A stretch of DNA of 27,823 nt from a virus: UHGV virus genome UHGV-0038965; one strand, written 5' to 3'. The stretch's first letter is position 1; each line of letters begins with the position of its first letter. The notes beneath the pieces are model-generated. The model was not told the DNA's origin. It worked only from the letters and a program-made list of their open reading frames with translations, and did not search any database. Both the position numbers and the translations under genes were made by a program. Of the stretch, positions 2,901 through 16,620 are shown one piece after another.

Positions 2901-3656
2901 TTAAACTGCTAGTTGCAATTGCATTTCAAAGCGGTCGCGTTGTTCACAATACGCAAGAGAACCAGGGCTATTGTGTGCCTCAATCCGTTCTACCATTAAT
3001 GCTGCGCGTGTCTCTTTACTTGCAGGTGCATAAGCCCCAGACCAGGCTTTATCAATACCGATGTTTCGAGCGACGTTCGTACTATCTGCGCTGGCTAAGG
3101 GTAATTTTGTGAATATCAGCGGATTTAACATGCGCAATCCATGTAGTTTCGTAACCGGCTGACCATGCCCATCAACAATGTGACGAATCAGGTCTTTCAT
3201 TCTGGCTACCGCAAGAGTTGGGCGCTTTACGTCATAGTCGCCACAACTACCGATAGCCACTCGCGGAAACTCATTGCACAAATGAATAAATCGCGCGTCA
3301 CTTTCATTCATGTGCCACACTGGAACGCCAGCTAGTTTTCCGTGAGGCCACTCATTCAGAAGCGCATCATTTTCCTCCTCTCCGCCATCAATAATATCCG
3401 GGATAATGGCAAAATCGAATCCTGGGTGATTCTTCCAGCGAGCAACAAACTCGTAGTAATCGCTCCAGTCGATTTTGTTTTTGCCAGCTGCTTTCCAGGC
3501 GGTGAATGCACCGTTGTCCAGCGCGAACGACTGACAGTATTCAGCCGCGAGATTGATCTGGCCTGAATGCGCAAAACTGATAAACGCATGTCGCCCTTTC
3601 CATGCTCTCATTGCGCACGTATCAGGAGTAATAGGCCCACCGTGGTAGTGAATCAT
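2901..3656 (-). CDS. Hypothetical protein (about 251 aa), function unknown
   Basis: ORF 2901-3698 in the track. The preferred start is the ATG at 3656 (MIHYHGGPITPD...), which is preceded by AGGAG and sits next to the stop of the upstream gene. Contains an acidic stretch, DFAIIPDIIDGGEEEND. No family recognised with confidence. Confidence 0.55.
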   Translation of the reverse strand: MIHYHGGPITPDTCAMRAWKGRHAFISFAHSGQINLAAEYCQSFALDNGAFTAWKAAGKNKIDWSDYYEFVARWKNHPGFDFAIIPDIIDGGEEENDALLNEWPHGKLAGVPVWHMNESDARFIHLCNEFPRVAIGSCGDYDVKRPTLAVARMKDLIRHIVDGHGQPVTKLHGLRMLNPLIFTKLPLASADSTNVARNIGIDKAWSGAYAPASKETRAALMVERIEAHNSPGSLAYCEQRDRFEMQLQLAV

Positions 3657-3657
3657 C

Positions 3658-4065
3658 TCACTCTCCTTTGATGCGAATGCCAGTAGCGCGGATTGCATCG
3701 ATGACTTCAGAAACTTTGTATGCCATTACCGTTTGGTAATCATCGTGAAAATCTGTTCGATGAAGCATGCTGCTACGTTCCGGGAGCAGTATTTCCCGCG
3801 CTTCCAGTTCTGCAATGCGCTTTTTTGCTGCTTCCAGTTCATCCAGTAATTCCAGCACGGTAGCCGGATTAGCCTTGGCAACAAAATCCCGGACTGGCTT
3901 ACAATCAATCTCCGCAATGGGTTGATACGATGTGTAGCCATGCTGTCTTGTATAACTACCGTGACGAATAACGAAAAAATCACCATTTATTTTTTTAGCC
4001 TGCCACTTATCTTCACCGGCTTTCTCTGCCGCTTCACGCAGTGCCTGAGAGTTAATTTCGCTCAC
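3658..4065 (-). CDS. Ea22-like protein (135 aa)
   Basis: N-terminus MSEINSQALREAAE and C-terminus GIRIKGE resemble lambda Ea22. Shares the motif ANPATVLELLDELEA with the product of 12474-12887. Confidence 0.7.
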   Translation of the reverse strand: MSEINSQALREAAEKAGEDKWQAKKINGDFFVIRHGSYTRQHGYTSYQPIAEIDCKPVRDFVAKANPATVLELLDELEAAKKRIAELEAREILLPERSSMLHRTDFHDDYQTVMAYKVSEVIDAIRATGIRIKGE

Positions 4066-4283
4066 TTCGAACCTCTCTGTTTACTGATAAGCTCCAGATC
4101 CTCCTGGCAACTTGCACAAGTCCGACAACCCTGAACGACCAGGCGTCTTCGTTCATCTATCGGATCGCCACACTCACAACAATGAGTGGCAGATACAGTC
4201 TGGTAGTTCAGACGACGCATTTTTATTGCTGTGTTGCGCTGTAATTCTTCAATTTCTGATGCTGAATCAATGATGTCTGCCAT
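4062..4283 (-). CDS. TraR/DksA-family C4 zinc-finger protein (73 aa)
   Basis: Four cysteines in CCECGDPIDERRR...GCRTCASCQE, the C4 spacing and length typical of phage and plasmid TraR-like proteins. Overlaps its neighbours by 4 bp. Confidence 0.7.
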   Translation of the reverse strand: MADIIDSASEIEELQRNTAIKMRRLNYQTVSATHCCECGDPIDERRRLVVQGCRTCASCQEDLELISKQRGSK

Positions 4284-4381
4284 CTTCCATTAATCCCTGA
4301 ATTGTTGGTTAATACGCTTGAGGGTGAATGCGAATAATAAAAAAGGAGCCTGTAGCTCCCTGATGATTTTGCTTTTCATGT

Positions 4382-4663
4382 TCATCGTTCCTTAAAGACG
4401 CCGTTTAACATGCCGATTGCCAGGCTTAAATGAGTCGGTGTGAATCCCATCAGCGTTACCGTTTCGCGGTGCTTCTTCAGTACGCTACGGCAAATGTCAT
4501 CGACGTTTTTATCCGGAAACTGCTGTCTGGCTTTTTTGATTTCAGAATTAGCCTGACGGGCAATGCTGCGAAGGGCGTTTTCCTGCTGAGGTGTCATTGA
4601 ACAAGTCCCATGTCGGCAAGCATAAGCACACAGAATATGAAGCCCGCTGCCAGAAAAATGCAT
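4382..4663 (-). CDS. Hypothetical small early protein (possibly starting at the internal Met, about 71 aa)
   Basis: ORF within the tightly packed leftward operon; no family recognised. Confidence 0.4.
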   Translation of the reverse strand: MHFSGSGLHILCAYACRHGTCSMTPQQENALRSIARQANSEIKKARQQFPDKNVDDICRSVLKKHRETVTLMGFTPTHLSLAIGMLNGVFKER

Positions 4664-4673
4664 TCAGTGGTTG

Positions 4674-5027
4674 TCATACCTGGTCTCTCTCATCTGCTTC
4701 TGCTTTCGCCACCATCATTTCCAGCTTTTGTGAAAGGGATGCGGCTAACGTGTGAAATTCTTCGTCTGTTTCTACTGGTATTGGCACAAACCTGACTCCA
4801 ATTTGAGCGAGGCTATGTGCCATCTCGATACTCGTTCTTAACTCAACGGGAGATGCTTTGTGCATACAGCCCCCCCATTTATTATTTATCTCCTCAGCCA
4901 GCCGCTGTGCTTTCAGGGGATTTCGGATTACAGAAAGGCCGGGAAATACCCAGCCTCGCTTTGTAACGGAGTAGACGAAAGTGATTGCGCCTACCCGGAT
5001 ATTATCGTGAGGATGCGTCATCGCCAT
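4674..5027 (-). CDS. Hypothetical protein (117 aa) in the lambda orf60a/orf63 position immediately downstream of exo
   Basis: Position directly after exo, overlapping the exo start region by 10 bp. May be a fusion of two small lambda-like ORFs; not verified. Confidence 0.45.
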
Positions 5028-5698
5028 TGCTCCCCAAATACAAAACCAATTTCAGCCAGTGCCTCGTCCATTTTTTCGATGAACTCCGGCACCATCTCGT
5101 CAAAACTCGCCATGTACTTTTCATTCCGCTCAATCACGACATAATGCAGGCCTTCACGCTTCATGCGCGGGTCATAGTTGGCAAAGTACCAGGCATCTTT
5201 TCGCGTCACCCACATGCTGTACTGCACCTGGGCCATGTAAGCCGATTTTATTGCCTCGAAACCACCGAGCCGGAATTTCATGAAATCCCGGGAGGTAAAC
5301 GGGCATTTCAGTTCAAGGCCGTTGCCGTCACTGCATAAACCATCGGGAGAGCAGGCGGTGCGCATATTTTCGTCGCGATAGATGATCGGGGATTCAGTAA
5401 TATTCACGCCGGAAGTGAATTCAAACAGGGTTCTGGCGTCGTTCTCGTACTGTTTTCCCCAGGCCAGCGCCTTAGCATTAACTTCCGGAGCCACACCGGT
5501 GCAAACCTCAGCCAGCAGGGTGTGGAAGTAGGACATTTTCATGTCAGGCCACTTCTTTCCTGAGCGGGGCTTTGCTATCACGTTGTGAACTTCTGAAGCG
5601 GTGATGACGCCGAGCCGTAATTTGTGCCATGCATCATCCCCCTGTTCGACAGCTCTCACGTCGATCCCGGTACGCTGCAGGATAATGTCCGGTGTCAT
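5018..5698 (-). CDS. exo: Lambda exonuclease (Red alpha), 226 aa
   Basis: Translation [65 protein letters not shown]... matches lambda Exo in sequence and length. Confidence 0.97.
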
Positions 5699-6480
5699 GC
5701 TGCCACCTTCTGCTCAGTGGCTTTCTGTTTCAGGAATCCAAGAGCTTTCACTGCTTCGGCCTGTGTCAGTTCTGACGATGCGCGAATGTCGCGGCGAAAT
5801 ATCTGGGAACAGAGCGGCAATAAGTCGTCATCCCATGTTTTATCCAGGGCGATCAGCAGAGTGTTAATCTCCTGCATGGTTTCATCGTTAACCGGAGTGA
5901 TGTCGCGTTCTGGCTGACGTTCTGCAGTGTATGCAGTATTTTCGACAATGCGCTCGGCTTCATCCTTGTCATAGATACCAGCAAATCCGAAGGCCAGACG
6001 GGCACACTGAATCATGGCTTTATGCCGTAACATCCGTTTGGGATGCGACTGCCACGGCCCCGTGATTTCTCTGCCTTCGCGAGTTTTGAATGGTTCGCGG
6101 CGGCATTCATCCATCCATTCGGTAACGCAGATCGGATGATTACGGTCCTTGCGGTAAATCCGGCATGTACATGATTCATTGTCCTGCTCAAAGTCCATGC
6201 CATCAAACTGCTGGTTTTCATTGATGATGCGGGACCAGCCATCAACGCCCACCACCGGAACGATGCCGTTCTGCTTATCAGGGAAGGCGTAAATTTCTTT
6301 CGTCCACGGATTAAGGCCGTACTGGTTGGCGACGATCAACAATGCGATGAACTGCGCATCGCTGGCATCACCTTTAAATGCCGTCTGACGAAGAGTGGTG
6401 ATCAGTTCCTGTGGGTCGACAGAATCCATGCCGACACGTTCAGCCAGCTTCCCAGCCAGCGTTGCGAGTGCAGTACTCAT
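5695..6480 (-). CDS. bet: Red beta single-strand annealing protein (Bet), 261 aa
   Basis: Translation [66 protein letters not shown]... matches lambda Bet. Overlaps exo by 4 bp. Confidence 0.97.
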
Positions 6481-6485
6481 TCGTT

Positions 6486-6782
6486 TTATACCTCTGAATC
6501 AATATCAACCTGATGGTGAGCAATGGTTTCAACCATGTACCGGATGTGTTCCGCCATGCGCTCCTGAAACTCAACATCGTCATCAAATGCACGGGTAATG
6601 GCTTTTTTGCTGGCCCCGTGGCGTTGCAAATGATCGATGCATAGCGATTCAAACAGGTGCTGGGGCAGGCCTTTTTCCATGTCGTCTGCCAGTTCTGCCT
6701 CTTTCTCTTCATGGGCGATCTGCTGGTAGTGACGCGCCCAGCTCTGAGCCTCAAGACGATCCTGAATGTAATAAGCGTTCAT
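6486..6782 (-). CDS. gam: Gam (RecBCD inhibitor), 98-aa short form
   Basis: [60 protein letters not shown]... matches the C-terminal 98 residues of lambda Gam (GamS). The ORF track reports no longer in-frame ORF, so the long form appears absent. Confidence 0.93.
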
Positions 6783-6857
6783 GGCTGAACTCCTGAAAAT
6801 GGCTGTGAAAATATCGCCCGCGAAATGCCAGGCTGATTAGGTAAACAGGAAAGGGGA

Positions 6858-7148
6858 TTAGTGATTCAGACCGTTGCCGCGCCCGTCGAGAAAAACTTCC
6901 ACGAGCAAGTCACGGGTATAAGTGCGCTCGATGCCGCGATGCAGATAAAGCCGTCCGCGTAAATTAGCTGATGCAGTCCAGGTACCATCTTTGTGTTTGA
7001 CCAGCATTCCTGGCATGACCGCACCGCGATTAACGGTCTGCGTTCCGTAATGTTGATGAACCATAAAAACTCCTGCCCGTAAGCTGGGCTGCTGAACATA
7101 TAAAGACTTCTGCGCGTATTCAGGCGGTGGATGGCCGCCGGTTGTCAT
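6858..7148 (-). CDS. Hypothetical protein (96 aa), first ORF of the leftward early operon in the position where lambda has N
   Basis: ORF begins about 190 nt downstream of the putative pL, with GAGG 10-13 nt upstream of the ATG. It has no arginine-rich N-terminus and so is not N-like. It could be a non-coding artefact. Confidence 0.35.
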   Translation of the reverse strand: MTTGGHPPPEYAQKSLYVQQPSLRAGVFMVHQHYGTQTVNRGAVMPGMLVKHKDGTWTASANLRGRLYLHRGIERTYTRDLLVEVFLDGRGNGLNH

Positions 7149-7286
7149 AACTAAGCCGCCTCGTTGAAGCGACTAAGGTATGAAATGTTGAGTTGATTTC
7201 AGCTGGTCACACCGACGTTCACGCGTCCGTTTCATCCCTCGCACTACCCGAAGCCTGCTGAAATTCAAGCTGCGGATCTAAGCGGT

Positions 7287-7336
7287 CATCGCAACGGTGA
7301 AACAGGTGGTTACCGTATCGTTGTGTCGTTGCGATG
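7287..7336 (-). promoter_or_regulatory. Extended stem-loop at the 5' end of the putative pL transcript (candidate antitermination or regulatory RNA element)
   Basis: Perfect 10-bp inverted repeat, catcgcaacg ... cgttgcgatg, enclosing about 30 nt, immediately downstream of the putative pL start. Confidence 0.4.
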
Positions 7337-7339
7337 AAT

Positions 7340-7430
7340 TTATTTAAAACTATAGTTGTTTTATCGTCAACAACAAAAGTTGTTTTATCGGTTGTTTTAA
7401 ATATAACTGGTTGTATTTAGGATGGATTTA
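7340..7430 (-). promoter_or_regulatory. OL/pL region: leftward early promoter with operator repeats
   Basis: The minus strand reads TTGACG - 17 nt - TTAAAT. The spacer carries AACAACTATAGTTTTAA, nearly identical to AACAACCATAGTTTTAA in the cI-cro intergenic region. Several GTTGTT/AACAAC half-sites are present. Confidence 0.55.
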
Positions 7431-7506
7431 TTTTGTGACTTGCATCGCATAGCGATAACTGAAGTGAGGTCGTGGTGGTTTTTTGAACGGTGTGTGATGA
7501 GGGGAG

Positions 7507-7538
7507 GGCAAAATAAAACCCGGCACGGTGGCCGGGTT
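7507..7538 (-). terminator. Rho-independent terminator ending the cI operon (t-imm analogue)
   Basis: On the minus strand, stem ACCCGGC/GCCGGGT with loop, followed by UUUUAUUUU; lies just downstream of the 147-aa gene. Confidence 0.65.
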
Positions 7539-7613
7539 TAGATGATTGGTTAAGAGCGAGGGTAATGGGGAATGAAAAATCGCTTTACCTAATGCAAGGG
7601 TGCGAGCATTTTC

Positions 7614-8057
7614 TTAAGCACTAAAGAAAAAGTACATTGATAGCTTATAAAGTCCTGTTCCTGCAGCGATGATTGCTGGAACACCAAGCAATACCGCAAG
7701 CTTTGCGTCTGAAATCTTTCTATCGACAGCATCACTTGATGGCTTGTTTGTTAAGGATTCTTTTATAGAGTCCAGACGTGCAAGAATAGTTATCATATTT
7801 TTGTCGATAGCTTTAACGTCTGTTTTAAGTTCATCAACGTCTCGTTTGATATGAGCAACATCGGACTCCAGTTTTGCAACTTTTTCAGGCATGTTATCAC
7901 TCCCAGACCCACTGCTACCACTTGATTGTAGCATGTCCCATCTTTTTCCAGATATACCTGCTAGCTGGGAAGACGCACTGGAGTGCAAACAAAATGATTT
8001 TGCCGCCTTTGCAATTTTATCATTTAGGTTTGGAGCTTCGTAATAATCGTGTTTCAT
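7614..8057 (-). CDS. Coiled-coil protein with a C-terminal transmembrane helix (147 aa; an alternative 92-aa form starts at 7892), possibly XhlA-like
   Basis: C-terminal hydrophobic helix LAVLLGVPAIIAAGTGLYKL. The central region (KLESDVAHIKRDVDELKTDVKAIDKNM) is heptad-like. A strong SD, GGGAG, precedes the internal ATG at 7892. AT-rich. Lies downstream of cI on the same strand. Confidence 0.6.
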   Translation of the reverse strand: MKHDYYEAPNLNDKIAKAAKSFCLHSSASSQLAGISGKRWDMLQSSGSSGSGSDNMPEKVAKLESDVAHIKRDVDELKTDVKAIDKNMITILARLDSIKESLTNKPSSDAVDRKISDAKLAVLLGVPAIIAAGTGLYKLSMYFFFSA

Positions 8058-8069
8058 AATTAATTACGA

Positions 8070-8333
8070 TTAGTTTGTTTTAGCTTTGTCATGCTGGTCG
8101 CGAATGAAGTCAGCCAATTTAAGCATCAATTCTTCGGGCATTCTAATGGTTGCAATGTTGTACTTTATGTTCTCAACATCGTCACTTTCATCAACAGGCC
8201 ATTCAGTTACATTATGAAAAAAAGAAATTGAACCTAGGCGCTGAGAGCCGTCACCAAACGAAGAGTAGCCAAACGCGTCGGCGTATGCATCGACACAGTT
8301 ATTTGATTTTTTAACAAGTGTTTTATTACTCAT
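8070..8333 (-). CDS. Hypothetical 87-aa protein with a C-terminal ribbon-helix-helix-like segment
   Basis: The C-terminal TIRMPEELMLKLADFIRDQ resembles the strand-helix start of RHH (CopG/Arc-type) DNA-binding domains. AT-rich. Lies between cI and the membrane-protein gene on the same strand. Confidence 0.5.
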   Translation of the reverse strand: MSNKTLVKKSNNCVDAYADAFGYSSFGDGSQRLGSISFFHNVTEWPVDESDDVENIKYNIATIRMPEELMLKLADFIRDQHDKAKTN

Positions 8334-8415: not shown

Positions 8416-9105
8416 TTATCCGTGTTTTCTGTACGTCTGCGGCATGCTCCCAATAACCTTACCGAATATGAATACCCGGTTCATCTCGTCTTTCTCGATC
8501 GGGTCCCACGGTGAGTAGCTCTTGTTATCAGAGATAACCAGTAGCTTATCCTTCATCATTTGCAGGCGCTTTACATGGGCGGTGTCGTCATACAGAAACG
8601 CATAGATGCCATCACCGTCGAAAGATTTAACAGTGATATCAACGAACAGCAGGTCACCTGGTTCGATCGTCCCTGACATGCTGTCACCTCGCACGTTAAT
8701 GATGCGGATATTTTCCGCCTTCCTGCCATCGAACATGTGACGAGCATCGTCAAACGAGTACTCAACCGAGCGTAGAACTTCTACAAACTCACGGTTGATT
8801 ACACCTGGCCCGGCACTGACTTCTATATCAAGAACGTCAATTTTGAAGTATTTGGAATGGCTGACAGTTGATTGTATTGGTTGCACTGTACTGTCTGACA
8901 TATTTCCAACGCCAGAAGATAACCATTCTGCGCGTACACCCAAAGCGTTCGCGATCTCCACGATTTTAGTTGTTTGGTTAGCTTTCCCTGTTTCGATTTT
9001 CTGAATAGCAGCCTGGCTAACCCCGACCAAATCCCCAAGCGCCTTTTGTGTAAGGCCTCGCGCTAATCTGGCTTCTTTAAGTCTTTCTGAGAGTGTTGTT
9101 TTCAT
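8416..9105 (-). CDS. cI: CI-type prophage repressor (N-terminal HTH-XRE, C-terminal S24 LexA-like autopeptidase), 229 aa
   Basis: HTH segment LTQKALGDLVGVSQAAIQKIETGK; Ala-Gly cleavage site in EVSAGPG; catalytic Ser in GDSMSGTI and Lys in HVKRL. Divergent from cro across an operator-rich intergenic region. Not the lambda-immunity CI sequence. Confidence 0.9.
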   Translation of the reverse strand: MKTTLSERLKEARLARGLTQKALGDLVGVSQAAIQKIETGKANQTTKIVEIANALGVRAEWLSSGVGNMSDSTVQPIQSTVSHSKYFKIDVLDIEVSAGPGVINREFVEVLRSVEYSFDDARHMFDGRKAENIRIINVRGDSMSGTIEPGDLLFVDITVKSFDGDGIYAFLYDDTAHVKRLQMMKDKLLVISDNKSYSPWDPIEKDEMNRVFIFGKVIGSMPQTYRKHG

Positions 9106-9209
9106 AGATCAAATGTACAACCAAGGTTTTATTTCATCAAACGAAAATGGTTGTTGACTAAAAACAACCATAGTTTTAATCTTGATTCGGATTAACCACG
9201 GAGGTTGTT
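9106..9209. promoter_or_regulatory. OR region with divergent pRM and pR promoters and operators
   Basis: Inverted repeat atggttgtt-N7-aacaaccat. TTGACT - 17 nt - TAATCT reads rightward. SD GGAGG precedes cro. Confidence 0.6.
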
Positions 9210-9440
9210 ATGAACCCAGCAATCAAAACAGCGATCAATATCGTTGGTTCACAAAAGAAACTAGGCGATGCCTGCGAAGTTTCACAGCAGGCCGTCTATA
9301 AGTGGCTTCACAACAAAGCAAAGGTATCCCCTGAACATGTCGGCAGCATTGTTACGGCTACTGGTGGAGTTGTGAAGGCATACCAGATTCGCCCGGATCT
9401 TCCGAAGTTGTTTCCACACACCGAAAAGAACGCAGCTTAA
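9210..9440 (+). CDS. cro: Cro-like HTH regulator (YdaS/Cro family), 76 aa
   Basis: Small HTH protein (LGDACEVSQQAVYKWL) divergently transcribed from cI with a strong SD. Unrelated in sequence to lambda Cro; resembles Rac YdaS-type Cro as I recall it. Confidence 0.8.
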   Translation: MNPAIKTAINIVGSQKKLGDACEVSQQAVYKWLHNKAKVSPEHVGSIVTATGGVVKAYQIRPDLPKLFPHTEKNAA

Positions 9441-9509
9441 ATTTCCATTTCACGCTCTTTAACAATAAGCAATCAACTTAACAGTCAATTCAAACTAAAG
9501 GAGTCAATT

Positions 9510-10049
9510 ATGCAACCACTTACATACCAACAGACTAGCGGATTTATTCCGACTGCGGTGATAAATCGTTCTCAAACAAAACAAGCTCCAGGCCACGAAA
9601 AAATCCGTGATGCCGTCCGCGCCTGGTCGGCTGTAGATAATCAGGATGTCGTTGCCGCACTCATTGTGAATGAGTATCGGGAGCAGGGCGACGGCACCAT
9701 CGATTTCCCTGATGATGTCAGCCGTGCACGCCAGAAGCTGTTCCGCTTCCTCGATAACAAATTCGATTCTGAAAAATACCGAAATAACGTGCGTGAACTG
9801 ACCCCGGCAATTCTGGCGGTACTACCGCTGGAATATCGCGGTTACCTGGTTGAGCAGGATAGCTTCATGACTCGGTTGGCTGAAATGGAAAAGGAACTCA
9901 GTGAGGCAAAACAGGCTGTCATTCTCAACGCACCACGCCACCAGAAACTGAAGGAAATGAGTGAAGGTATTGTGTCGATGTTTCGTGTGGACCCGGATCT
10001 GGCTGGTCCATTAATGGCGATGGTGACCACCATGCTGGGGGCAATATGA
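9510..10049 (+). CDS. YdaT-like regulator (functional analogue of CII), 179 aa
   Basis: Lies between cro and the replication genes, with SD AAGGAG. Resembles Rac YdaT-family proteins from memory (LTPAILAVLP motif). Not lambda CII. Confidence 0.55.
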   Translation: MQPLTYQQTSGFIPTAVINRSQTKQAPGHEKIRDAVRAWSAVDNQDVVAALIVNEYREQGDGTIDFPDDVSRARQKLFRFLDNKFDSEKYRNNVRELTPAILAVLPLEYRGYLVEQDSFMTRLAEMEKELSEAKQAVILNAPRHQKLKEMSEGIVSMFRVDPDLAGPLMAMVTTMLGAI

Positions 10050-10135: not shown

Positions 10136-11065
10136 ATGGCAAACACTGCTGAGATATTCAATTTTCCAGTGCCGGATGCGGCACAAAAGGAGCCGCGCGT
10201 GGCAGATCTCGATGATGGTTATACGCGCATTGCAAATGAGTTGCTGGAAGCTGTGATGCTGGCCGGATTAACACAGCACCAGCTTCTGGTCTTCCTGGCT
10301 GTCATGCGCAAAACATATGGCTTTAATAAAAAACTGGATTGGGTGAGCAACGAGCAACTTTCCGAGTTGACCGGGATATTGCCGCACAAGTGTTCTGCTG
10401 CAAAAAGTGTTCTGGTAAAGCGTGGGATTTTTATTCAGAGCGGGCGGAATATCGGCATTAATAATGTGGTCAGTGAATGGTCAACATTACCCGAATCAGG
10501 TAAGAAAAATAAAGTTTACCTGAAAGAGGTAAATTTACCTGAATCAGGTAAGAAAAGTTTACCCAAATCAGGTAAAGGCACTTACCCGAATCAGGTAAAC
10601 ACAAAAGACAAACTAACAAAAGACAATATAAAACCTTATTCGTCCGAGAATTCTGGCGAATACTCTGACCAGCCAGAAAACGACCTTCCTGTGGTGAAAC
10701 CGGATGCTGCGATTCAGAGCGGCAGCAAGTGGGGGACAGCAGAAGACCTGACCGCCGCAGAGTGGATGTTTGACATGGTGAAGACCATCGCGCCATCAGC
10801 CAGAAAACCGAATTTTGCAGGGTGGGCTAACGATATCCGCCTGATGCGTGAGCGTGACGGGCGTAACCACCGCGATATGTGTGTACTGTTCCGCTGGGCA
10901 TGCCAGGACAACTTCTGGTCCGGTAACGTGCTGAGTCCGGCCAAACTCCGCGACAAGTGGACCCAGCTCGAAATCAACCGAAACAAGCAACAGGCTGGCG
11001 TGACAGCCGGCAAACCAAAACTCGACCTGACGAACACTGACTGGATTTACGGGGTGGATTTATGA
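10136..11065 (+). CDS. O: Replication initiator O (the ORF is open from 10046; the preferred start is 10136, MANTAEIFNF...)
   Basis: RVADLDDGYTRIANELLEA and LAVMRKTYGFNKK match the lambda O N-terminal DNA-binding domain. GGGAGG precedes the ATG at 10136. Contains the ori iterons. The C-terminal domain precedes P as in lambda. Confidence 0.9.
   Translation: MANTAEIFNFPVPDAAQKEPRVADLDDGYTRIANELLEAVMLAGLTQHQLLVFLAVMRKTYGFNKKLDWVSNEQLSELTGILPHKCSAAKSVLVKRGIFIQSGRNIGINNVVSEWSTLPESGKKNKVYLKEVNLPESGKKSLPKSGKGTYPNQVNTKDKLTKDNIKPYSSENSGEYSDQPENDLPVVKPDAAIQSGSKWGTAEDLTAAEWMFDMVKTIAPSARKPNFAGWANDIRLMRERDGRNHRDMCVLFRWACQDNFWSGNVLSPAKLRDKWTQLEINRNKQQAGVTAGKPKLDLTNTDWIYGVDL
10488..10600 (+). repeat. ori: Origin of replication: five iterons (consensus about TTACCYRAATCAGGTAAR) followed by an A/T-rich segment extending to about 10640
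   Basis: tacccgaatcaggtaag / ttacctgaaagaggtaaa / ttacctgaatcaggtaag / ttacccaaatcaggtaaag / cttacccgaatcaggtaaac, then acacaaaagacaaactaacaaaagacaatataaaacc. They lie inside the O reading frame and are translated as LPESGKK repeats. Confidence 0.85.
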
Positions 11066-13936: not shown

Positions 13937-13959
13937 CGCGGAAACTTTGAAGGTATAAT

Positions 13960-13985
13960 CCCCTCAAATAATCGAGGGGGTTTTT
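13960..13985 (+). terminator. Hairpin plus T-run immediately upstream of the moron ATG
   Basis: cccctc-aaataatc-gaggggg-ttttt, directly followed by the ATG at 13986. The 3' arm may double as the SD. Confidence 0.5.
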
Positions 13986-16087: not shown

Positions 16088-16172
16088 AGTCAGAGATAAC
16101 AATCAACTAATACTGTTTTGTTGATTTTTGCTTGTAATTGGCGTTCTGGTCTGAGTTTTGTGGAGTAAGTTG

Positions 16173-16620
16173 ATGCGTGATATTCAGATGGTTCTTGAGC
16201 GTTGGGGAGCGTGGGCGGCTAATAATCATGAAGATGTGACCTGGTCGTCCATTGCCGCCGGTTTTAAGGGATTAATTCCTTCAAAAGTAAAATCTCGCCC
16301 ACAATGTTGTGACGATGACGCGATGATCATTTGCGGGTGCATGGNNNNNNNNNNAATCTCGCCCACAATGTTGTGACGATGACGCGATGATCATTTGCGG
16401 GTGCATGGCCCGTCTGAAAAAGAACAACAGCGATTTGCACGATTTATTAGTAGATTATTATGTAGTCGGTATGACATTCATGTCACTGGCAGGTAAGCAT
16501 TGCTGCTCTGATGGTTATATCGGGAAAAGGTTACAAAAGGCTGAGGGCATAATTGAAGGGATGTTAATGGCATTAGATATCCGGTTAGAGATGGATATCG
16601 TTGTTAATAACTCTAATTAA
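16173..16620 (+). CDS. Q: Late antiterminator Q (phage 82 / DLP12 QuuD type); the reading frame is interrupted by an assembly gap
   Basis: [31 protein letters not shown]...[20 protein letters not shown]...[14 protein letters not shown]. The two track ORFs (16158-16376 and 16387-16620) are halves of one gene split by a 10-N gap with duplicated flanks. Confidence 0.85.
16345..16354. other. Scaffold gap (10 N) flanked by an identical 54-bp direct duplication (16291-16344 and 16355-16408)
   Basis: The N run is visible in the sequence, and the same 54 bp occurs on both sides of it. Removing one copy plus the Ns restores an intact Q frame. Confidence 0.9.

Follow-up and report, generated by a model that had tools for sequence, protein, structure and literature searches.

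Two textbook routes carry RNA polymerase past the early terminators of lambdoid phages, namely the N protein acting with nut in lambda and the put RNA of HK022. The latter promotes terminator read-through in cis, and mutations in the zinc-binding domain of the RNA polymerase beta' subunit block this activity (PMC9378689). Lambdoid phages that lack N are already known: put serves HK022 and HK639, and its use has also been suggested for phage LLS (PMC12315714). Here, we consider the leftward early operon of virus genome UHGV-0038965, whose 27,823 nucleotides (nt) we refer to as the window, and in particular the leader between its early leftward promoter, pL, and kil, both on the minus strand. 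The lineage to which this leader belongs, found in about 41% of complete Escherichia coli genomes, has neither of the two routes. Judged from its sequence, the region would be a repressor-controlled pL followed by an untranslated mosaic leader, in a lambda/HK639-type hybrid prophage without N or a put RNA, and we give about an even chance to the explanation that kil, gam, bet and exo are expressed without N through loss of the first terminator. Should this hold, the locus would be a naturally occurring case of "N-independence by terminator loss"; should it fail, a third kind of early antitermination signal lies hidden in the leader. Its interest lies in the abundance of the lineage, in unexplained terminators retained further downstream, and in an apparently undescribed hairpin module ahead of kil.

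Several described systems resemble the locus in part. HK639 has the same immunity type (cI 44% identical, a YdaS-like Cro and a YdaT-like CII; ENT1 and KO-TP1 likewise have YdaS/YdaT-type immunity regions where annotated), the same 25-nt transcript start and the same module of three hairpins (A, B and C), and it too lacks N. Its early left region runs from pL through a putL-like RNA, two open reading frames (ORFs) and two terminators to, further on, kil and gam, whereas the window lacks put, the two ORFs, the canonical terminator and the U-run after hairpin B, and carries an unrelated segment of about 115-150 nt instead. HK022 is comparable as an N-less phage with a leader directly after pL, but the window has no match to put in sequence or structure and no second copy of its leader in the right operon. 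In phi80, the DNA that follows terminator tL1A is homologous to window 7185-7123 and kil lies downstream, as it does here; however, phi80 has nutL, N and a canonical tL1A, all three of which are missing from the window. Lambda itself shares the logic of promoter and operator as well as gam, bet, exo and the distal left arm (by blastn, window 4024-6864, from the end of ea22 to gam, is 97.7% identical, and 47-1683, comprising attP-int-xis, 99.2%). Unlike lambda, the window has no nutL, no N and no ORF between pL and kil, and its Kil belongs to phrog_294, the type of Rac KilR, whereas the 47-aa (amino acid) Kil of lambda is of another family. The Rac prophage, finally, is N-less, has a YdaS/YdaT-type immunity region and places a long noncoding region before a phrog_294-type kil, but that region has no sequence similarity to the window leader, and sieB and other genes stand between the repressor gene and kilR.

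As read from the sequence, the leader is an untranslated, three-part mosaic of about 270 nt. Its opening 25 nt have their homologue at the start of the pL transcript in HK639 and ENT1, and by alignment in KO-TP1; a middle segment follows; and a module of about 120 nt, from 7185 to about 7070, holds the three hairpins. It is at the border of the last two parts that the window departs from its relatives. In all seven of the relatives compared that are not of the E. coli type (phi80, HK225, HK639, CobraSix, S9-5, KO-TP1 and ENT1), a canonical terminator, of which AGCCGCCTAACCAGCGGCTTTTTT is an example, lies immediately 5' of the CATACC with which the module begins. Every window-type sequence lacks the terminator stem at this place, and their junction, at which ACATTT abuts CATACC, looks as if it fell inside the remnant of an old U-run. 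A terminator scan found none between 7336 and 7065. The second annotated terminator of HK639 (L004 4688-4716) consists of hairpin B and AGCAUAUUUUU; what comes after hairpin B in the window is UGAAUACGCGCAG, without a U-run. Among the relatives that bear the terminator, the device upstream of it is N in phi80 and put in HK639, CobraSix and S9-5, and no put is found by model in KO-TP1, ENT1 or HK225. In these relatives, transcription from pL would have to pass a canonical terminator of the tL1A type (GCCGC..GCGGC-UUUUUU) before it enters the module, and would do so by means of N or put. The window lineage appears to lack all of these: antiterminator, intervening ORFs and terminator stem. Because antiterminator and terminator would have been lost together, RNA polymerase should reach kil, gam, bet and exo unaided by any antitermination device.

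The original prediction had raised the possibility of a put-like leader RNA as in HK022. With HK022 putL and putR located by the numbering of PMC9378689, a blastn search with putL returned 28 records, none of them a relative of the window; the put relatives found were HK639, CobraSix, phiEt88, S9-5, PDP110P2, UPF_BP1 and PdC23. A covariance model (R1) was made from 12 putL/putR sequences (87.7% of cells paired, nine pairs changed on both sides) and an nhmmer profile from nine of the 12, the full consensus tested being GAACGGC...GUCGG...GGCGGG.UCAGGA.GA.CGGCAAU with covarying stems. The model detects putL in eight phages and putR in four. Run on the window with filters off, it finds nothing in 7149-7336, its best match (10.7 bits, E = 0.32) lying at 10166-10233 inside O, and the nhmmer profile has no match in 7149-7336 either. 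In a run of the model over eight related loci, phage 4A7, E. coli QDFD216 and E. coli strain 350 are equally negative, and a scan of the whole window against Rfam at E <= 1 returned one chance match to mir-277 only. The leader does occupy the putL position, directly downstream of pL, and a short stretch of it (GGGAUGAAACGG) resembles putL (AGGAUGAACGG) locally, as one would hope for in a diverged member of the HK022 put family. With both searches negative, and with the invariant blocks GAACGGC, GUCGG, GGCG-GG and CAAU absent or out of order, we find such descent scarcely credible and reject membership of the family. Nothing comparable to the leader was found after pR; HK639 also lacks putR.

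A similar conclusion holds for N, the absence of which had been proposed from the start. The early ORFs tested have no match to the N family in Pfam or PHROGs, and neither PGAP, for the identical prophage of E. coli QDFD216, nor RefSeq, for phage 4A7, annotates an N gene. Nor did a divergent N come to light: the leader contains an Arg-rich mini-ORF (7268-7173, including GMKRTRERRCDQLK), which shows no coding constraint. It is this frame that would have to serve if the leader encoded a degenerate or miniature N, a proposition we regard as very improbable. We take its KRTRERR to be comparable to the TRRRERR of lambda N. Most relatives have CAG in place of the TAG at 7175-7173, so that the frame is open from 7277 through the Arg-rich RGVKRTRERRCDQLK into Kil. 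This is the case in about two thirds of variants, about a third having a stop or a frameshift. The sample for the coding test comprised 64 distinct upstream variants from 80 IMG/VR loci with an identical Kil, and in it the 28 variable sites of 7268-7065 are distributed 12:8:8 over codon positions 1:2:3, with 8 of the 28 synonymous (29%). The TAG stop stands in 17 of the 64, and others carry frameshifting indels of 1 nt. Moreover, the start context is poor, for GAGG abuts the ATG, which is GTG in most variants, and the leader has no boxA (none within one mismatch in 7149-7336) and no boxB. When the mini-ORF peptides were compared with PHROGs at E <= 10, no N was recovered, only one weak unknown family; among 5.8 billion proteins searched, 36 sporadically called ORFs of the same locus matched, none of them named N and three covering the motif. 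Neither the Arg-rich frame nor the 28-codon stretch that follows it up to kil shows any sign of coding selection, although the latter offers six variable sites only.

Loss of the first terminator does not account for everything, and several observations weigh against it. Strong leftward terminators are kept at 4361-4343, 1678-1659, 1647-1628 and 1451-1432, in the DNA that is 97.7-99.2% identical to lambda, and we take the first of these (minus strand) to stand at the position of lambda tL3. Lambda relies on N for passage through terminators of this kind. As these lambda-derived terminators are retained, expression of xis and int from pL is left unexplained. A further strong terminator, at 13957-13982, lies between P and Q. 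The middle segment also suggests a function of its own, because it is less variable than kil third codon positions (about 14% of leader sites vary; for those positions of kil, the figure from the same set of sequences is about 25%), because it is kept with three immunity types, and because its place is that of put in HK639. The leader is thus constrained though noncoding. Finally, the start site, the read-through and the roles of hairpins A-C are all inferred.

These same facts can be read in another way, which we judge to be quite unlikely: that 7336-7186, the first 150 nt or so of the transcript with the 5' hairpin and the middle segment, is a new cis-acting processive antiterminator RNA, put-like in action and unrelated to put, which would take polymerase past the terminators at the tL3 position and before xis and int. 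On this account, a locus with neither N nor put could still have kept its lambda-derived terminators, and the records do describe members of the family as viable, plaque-forming phages. Of 5426 complete E. coli genomes, 2222 carry the middle segment, at 80-100% identity and almost always above 90%, and 16 phage records have it too. Its variation is below that of synonymous sites, and the start it follows, 25-55 nt long, is shared with phages whose inserts at this slot differ in the manner of cassettes. On the other hand, the early genes would need no such device with the first terminator gone, the segment resembles put in neither sequence nor structure, and it has no counterpart in the right operon. 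Its fold is not unusually stable (z = +0.54), although thermodynamic z-scores do not discriminate here, as HK022 putL itself scores -0.68. There are no compensatory changes, and G-U compatible ones are about as frequent as expected by chance (13, with about 8 others that break pairs). No similarity to the segment was found in HK639, ENT1, KO-TP1, phi80, HK225, Rac or HK022, it is absent from nine Kil loci of other species (in Citrobacter, Kluyvera, Enterobacter, Silvania and Pseudocitrobacter) and from every other phage examined, and a search for distant homologues (blastn of phages, the nine Kil loci, nhmmer) yielded none. The case for a new RNA gains no positive support from structure or, with no homologue found outside E. 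coli prophages, from comparison.

The slot itself merits description. ENT1 (L098 2000-2290), KO-TP1 (L097 2345-2785) and HK639 (L004 3440-3640) share a pL transcript start of roughly 55 nt. At the place of put, ENT1 and KO-TP1 carry unrelated inserts of similar or greater length, with the canonical terminator kept downstream; of the three, only HK639 has put. From these sequences, the pL-leader slot resembles a variable cassette that possibly holds other antitermination devices. Were the window segment a new class of antiterminator RNA, ENT1 and KO-TP1 would hold further, different solutions at the same slot, a conjecture that we consider improbable. Two candidate features of the leader were discarded. 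For helices I6 and I8, the association of A-U and G-C at 7230/7185 is inseparable from haplotype linkage, and a resemblance of GGGTAGTGCG to the RfaH ops site, GGCGGTAGCGTG, is confined to the window, most variants reading GGGGAG (7246 is G in 57 of 64).

The third part of the leader extends beyond E. coli prophages. Window 7185-7123 is 84-85% identical over about 60 nt to the DNA directly after N and tL1A in phi80, and further homologues of the module are the stretch of HK639 that holds its two annotated terminators and sequences of HK225, CobraSix, S9-5, KO-TP1 and ENT1 (nhmmer E = 1e-10 to 1e-20 against these seven phages). Its members show CAUACC, a covarying long hairpin, UUAUGA and GGCGG-CCAUCCA-CCGCC in this order, upstream of the kil block. 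In an alignment of nine phages (A6), 97.8% of cells are paired in the structure formed by hairpins A and B, and hairpin A has seven pairs with changes in both partners; none of 500 shuffles reaches the score, and slid controls are 31-51% paired. Hairpin C reads GCCC/GGGC in the window and GCGC/GCGC in HK639, ENT1 and CobraSix, a pair left uncounted owing to a one-column offset in the alignment. The AUG of a 96-aa ORF, at 7148, sits in the lower stem of hairpin A. The frame that it opens (MTTGGHPPP...) is shifted in CobraSix, so the conservation of the module lies at the level of RNA. No Rfam family matches it. To judge by sequence, the A/B module is apparently undescribed, a conserved phage RNA element common to phi80, HK639, HK225 and phages of Klebsiella, Enterobacter and Salmonella. 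Its most likely role would be to tune kil expression, by processing, by attenuation or by occlusion of the upstream AUG.

The 96-aa ORF just mentioned (6858-7148) had been put forward as the first ORF of the operon, with the alternative that its product is an unrelated antiterminator or host-modulating factor, and kil had been declared not apparent. That the ORF exists and that its product is a host-modulating protein other than N proved correct; the remainder was mistaken, for residues 20-96 match positions 4-80 of the 83 in phrog_294, "Kil protein for bacterial septation inhibition" (E = 1.2e-38; Pfam-A gives no match). A 207-nt Kil or 'phage encoded cell division inhibitor' that corresponds to window 7064-6858 is annotated by RefSeq in phage 4A7 and by PGAP in E. 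coli QDFD216, which has a leader 100% identical to that of the window, and an identical 68-aa Kil occurs in 80 IMG/VR loci. The six variable sites of the upstream extension (7148-7065) show no third-position bias. As the sequence indicates, then, the 96-aa ORF is kil with an in-frame upstream extension that lacks a coding signal, the true gene encoding the 68-aa Kil, and the annotation of the operon should be corrected so that it begins with this gene and not with a long ORF. The original prediction fared better with the neighborhood: gam follows directly, and cIII, ral and sieB have no room between pL and kil, as no ORF lies there.

With kil as the first gene, a further explanation has to be weighed, namely that the leader mainly brakes kil through an attenuator or a Rho-dependent terminator, possibly with a small RNA (sRNA) derived from the leader, and so keeps the toxic Kil low. 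In Rac, Rho-dependent termination at the terminator trac prevents lethal expression of kilR (PMC4150792), and in K-12 the sRNA KilS is annotated in the 5' untranslated region of kilR (PMC8175672). The window parallels both in having a long untranslated leader ahead of a Kil gene of this type. A G-free stretch of 26 nt (7199-7174), within a C/G ratio of 1.6-1.7 over 7206-7116, lies just before and over the module and is mildly rut-like; in phi80, a Rho-dependent tL1B is annotated shortly after the homologous module. Against a brake stand the lack of homology to the Rac kilR leader or to KilS, the G-rich middle segment (C/G 0.56-0.87), which would make a poor rut site, and the lack of a U-run after hairpin A or B, with which no clean intrinsic 3' end is predicted. 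Since pL is repressed in lysogens, moreover, silencing would be relevant only after induction. We regard a leader that serves mainly as a brake as rather unlikely. A module that attenuates or processes the kil message is nonetheless plausible by analogy, and would be compatible with loss of the first terminator and not an exclusive alternative to it. KilS itself, at 2906-3003 (minus strand) of K-12 Rac (L094), matches the leader by position, without sequence similarity.

Upstream, the promoter that had been proposed (TTGACG-17-TTAAAT amid operator repeats) stands on firm ground. Operator-like inverted repeats (I1, I2, I4 and I7, from the sequence and an inverted-repeat search) surround it, GTTGTTGACgAtAAAACAACtATAGTTTTAAat at pL/oL closely matches GTTGTTGACtAAAAACAACcATAGTTTTAAtc at pR/oR (9150-9183), and the annotated pL of HK639 has the same geometry. 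A simple promoter scan does not list it, because position 2 of the -10 element is T and not A. We infer a transcript start at about 7335 from the spacing to the -10 element and from AATTCATCGCAACGACACAACGATA, whose homologue opens the HK639 leader after the annotated pL of that phage; without the usual A at position 2, this start is uncertain by a few bases.

The transcript would open with a stem-loop. Given a start at about 7335, some 9 base pairs (bp) of the 11-bp arms are contained in the RNA, and the stem opens at the first transcribed base. The minimum free energy is -19.2 kcal/mol, against -8.7 +/- 2.6 for shuffled sequences (z = -4.08), and none of 200 shuffles is as stable. The changes at 7336, 7335 and 7333, found across 47 distinct variants of the leader, replace C by U or A by G where the partner is G or U, and nearly all variants still pair; changes of this kind, being G-U compatible, keep the pairing only in RNA of the minus strand. 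With the immunity type of 4A7, a -10 of TATTAT is followed by ATCGCAAC and the stem also begins at +1, though with a weaker hairpin of about -9 kcal/mol. With that of E. coli strain 350 (Ec350), the hairpin is absent and homology begins only at about 7301. The hairpin is real, yet it is no obligatory part of the conserved leader. The large perfect-stem hairpin that had been placed at the transcript start (7287-7336) is accordingly upheld as significant and as beginning at about +1, with its coordinates one base off and without being universal. Emory, Bouvet and Belasco are said to have reported in 1992 that a stem-loop at the extreme 5' end stabilizes E. coli mRNAs, and by analogy the most likely role of this one would be to shield the 5' end of the message. 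A hexamer, AACGAT (7317-7322, minus strand), lies at about +14 to +19 within the hairpin, and we presume it to be identical to the -10-like element of sigma70-dependent pausing at lambda pR'.

The only recognizable signal of antitermination type belongs to the right operon. At 9454-9465 on the plus strand, 13 nt after the cro stop, stands a perfect rrn-type boxA, GCTCTTTAACAA (within CGCTCTTTAACAAT), of which about 0.003 chance matches are expected. It occurs in 27 of 92 related loci, all with the immunity type of the window, and we take its position to be that of lambda nutR. No boxB-like hairpin is visible in the 44 nt after it (by eye, unfolded). On sequence grounds, it may be an anti-Rho signal for the right operon that works with Nus factors only. 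HK639 has put on the left only and nothing in its 30-nt cro-cII gap, from which it follows that the HK639-type immunity group manages its right operon without a recognizable device. A 15-mer, CGCAGCTT(G/A)AATTTC, is common to the left leader (7259-7273, minus strand) and the end of cro (9430-9444, plus strand), 10 nt before the boxA. It is all that speaks for a second copy of the leader in the right operon, and with a borderline score of 25 against a shuffle maximum of 26 that candidate was rejected. A lambda-type boxA, CGCTCTTA (context CGCTCTTAACCAAT), is also found at 7551-7558 (minus strand), upstream of the terminator at 7539-7516 and of pL; it is outside the pL transcript, in DNA specific to the accessory cassette, and absent from 4A7.

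Table 1. Coordinates of the features of the early left region (window positions unless a relative is named).
Feature	Position	Strand	Description
Intrinsic terminator ending the cI-moron (immunity) transcript	7516..7539	minus	upstream of pL; 9-bp stem with 6 GC pairs, U-run; kept in 4A7
oL/pL	7341..7420	minus	-35 TTGACG 7370-7365, -10 TTAAAT 7347-7342, 17-nt spacer; overlapping operator palindromes with half-sites GTTGTT/AACAAC
5' stem-loop of putative pL transcript	7286..7337	minus	perfect 11-nt arms 7337-7327 / 7296-7286, 30 nt between; inner stem present
Middle segment (leader part ii)	7186..7301	minus	115 nt, ~150 nt counted from transcript start; noncoding; E. coli prophages only
Arg-rich mini-ORF	7268-7173	minus	no sign of coding selection
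Hairpin A	7146..7182	minus	15 pairs; lower stem CAUA/UAUG conserved; covarying upper stem 7174-7154
Hairpin B	7123..7139	minus	GGCGG-CCAUCCA-CCGCC, nearly invariant; no U-run after
Hairpin C	7070..7089	minus	GCCC-AGCUUAC-GGGC 7089-7075, then kil Shine-Dalgarno AGGAG 7074-7070
Module in window and relatives	7123-7182 (window); L095 2504-2570; HK639 L004 4647-4705	minus (window)	also in L093, L005, L007, L097, L098
kil, cell-division inhibitor	6858..7064	minus	68 aa, coordinates including stop; ATG 7064; Shine-Dalgarno AGGAG 7074-7070
gam	6486..6782	minus	Pfam Gam, E = 2.9e-64; lambda-identical DNA starts here

On the minus strand, the order of genes is int (135-1205), then exo (5018-5698), bet (5695-6480), gam (6486-6782) and the 96-aa ORF (6858-7148), followed by a gene-free interval at 7149-7613, accessory ORFs at 7614-8057 and 8070-8333 and an S24/helix-turn-helix repressor at 8416-9105. 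The plus strand carries the YdaS-like Cro (9210-9440), the YdaT-like CII (9510-10049), O, P, nin-type genes and a PF06530 Q. Between the end of kil and the beginning of gam, where the lambda-identical DNA has its edge, there is a weak terminator-like hairpin (6816-6833, minus strand) with a 5-bp stem and the tail GAUAUUUUCA. The two accessory genes, both on the minus strand between cI and pL, hold the position of lambda rexAB; their products are a 147-aa protein with a coiled coil and a C-terminal hydrophobic segment (phrog_3556) and an acidic 87-aa protein (phrog_4231). In relatives, the same cargo slot holds an ASCH-domain protein (4A7) or a SIR2-family protein (strain 350). A run of ten Ns at 16346-16355, inside the Q gene, has on its flanks (16292-16408) a duplication of about 54 nt. 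Run and duplication resemble a scaffold-join artefact, by which Q is split into two ORFs (16158-16376 and 16387-16620), and the window is probably derived from a draft assembly. The prophage adjoins ybhC, the lambda attachment site, in E. coli QDFD216.

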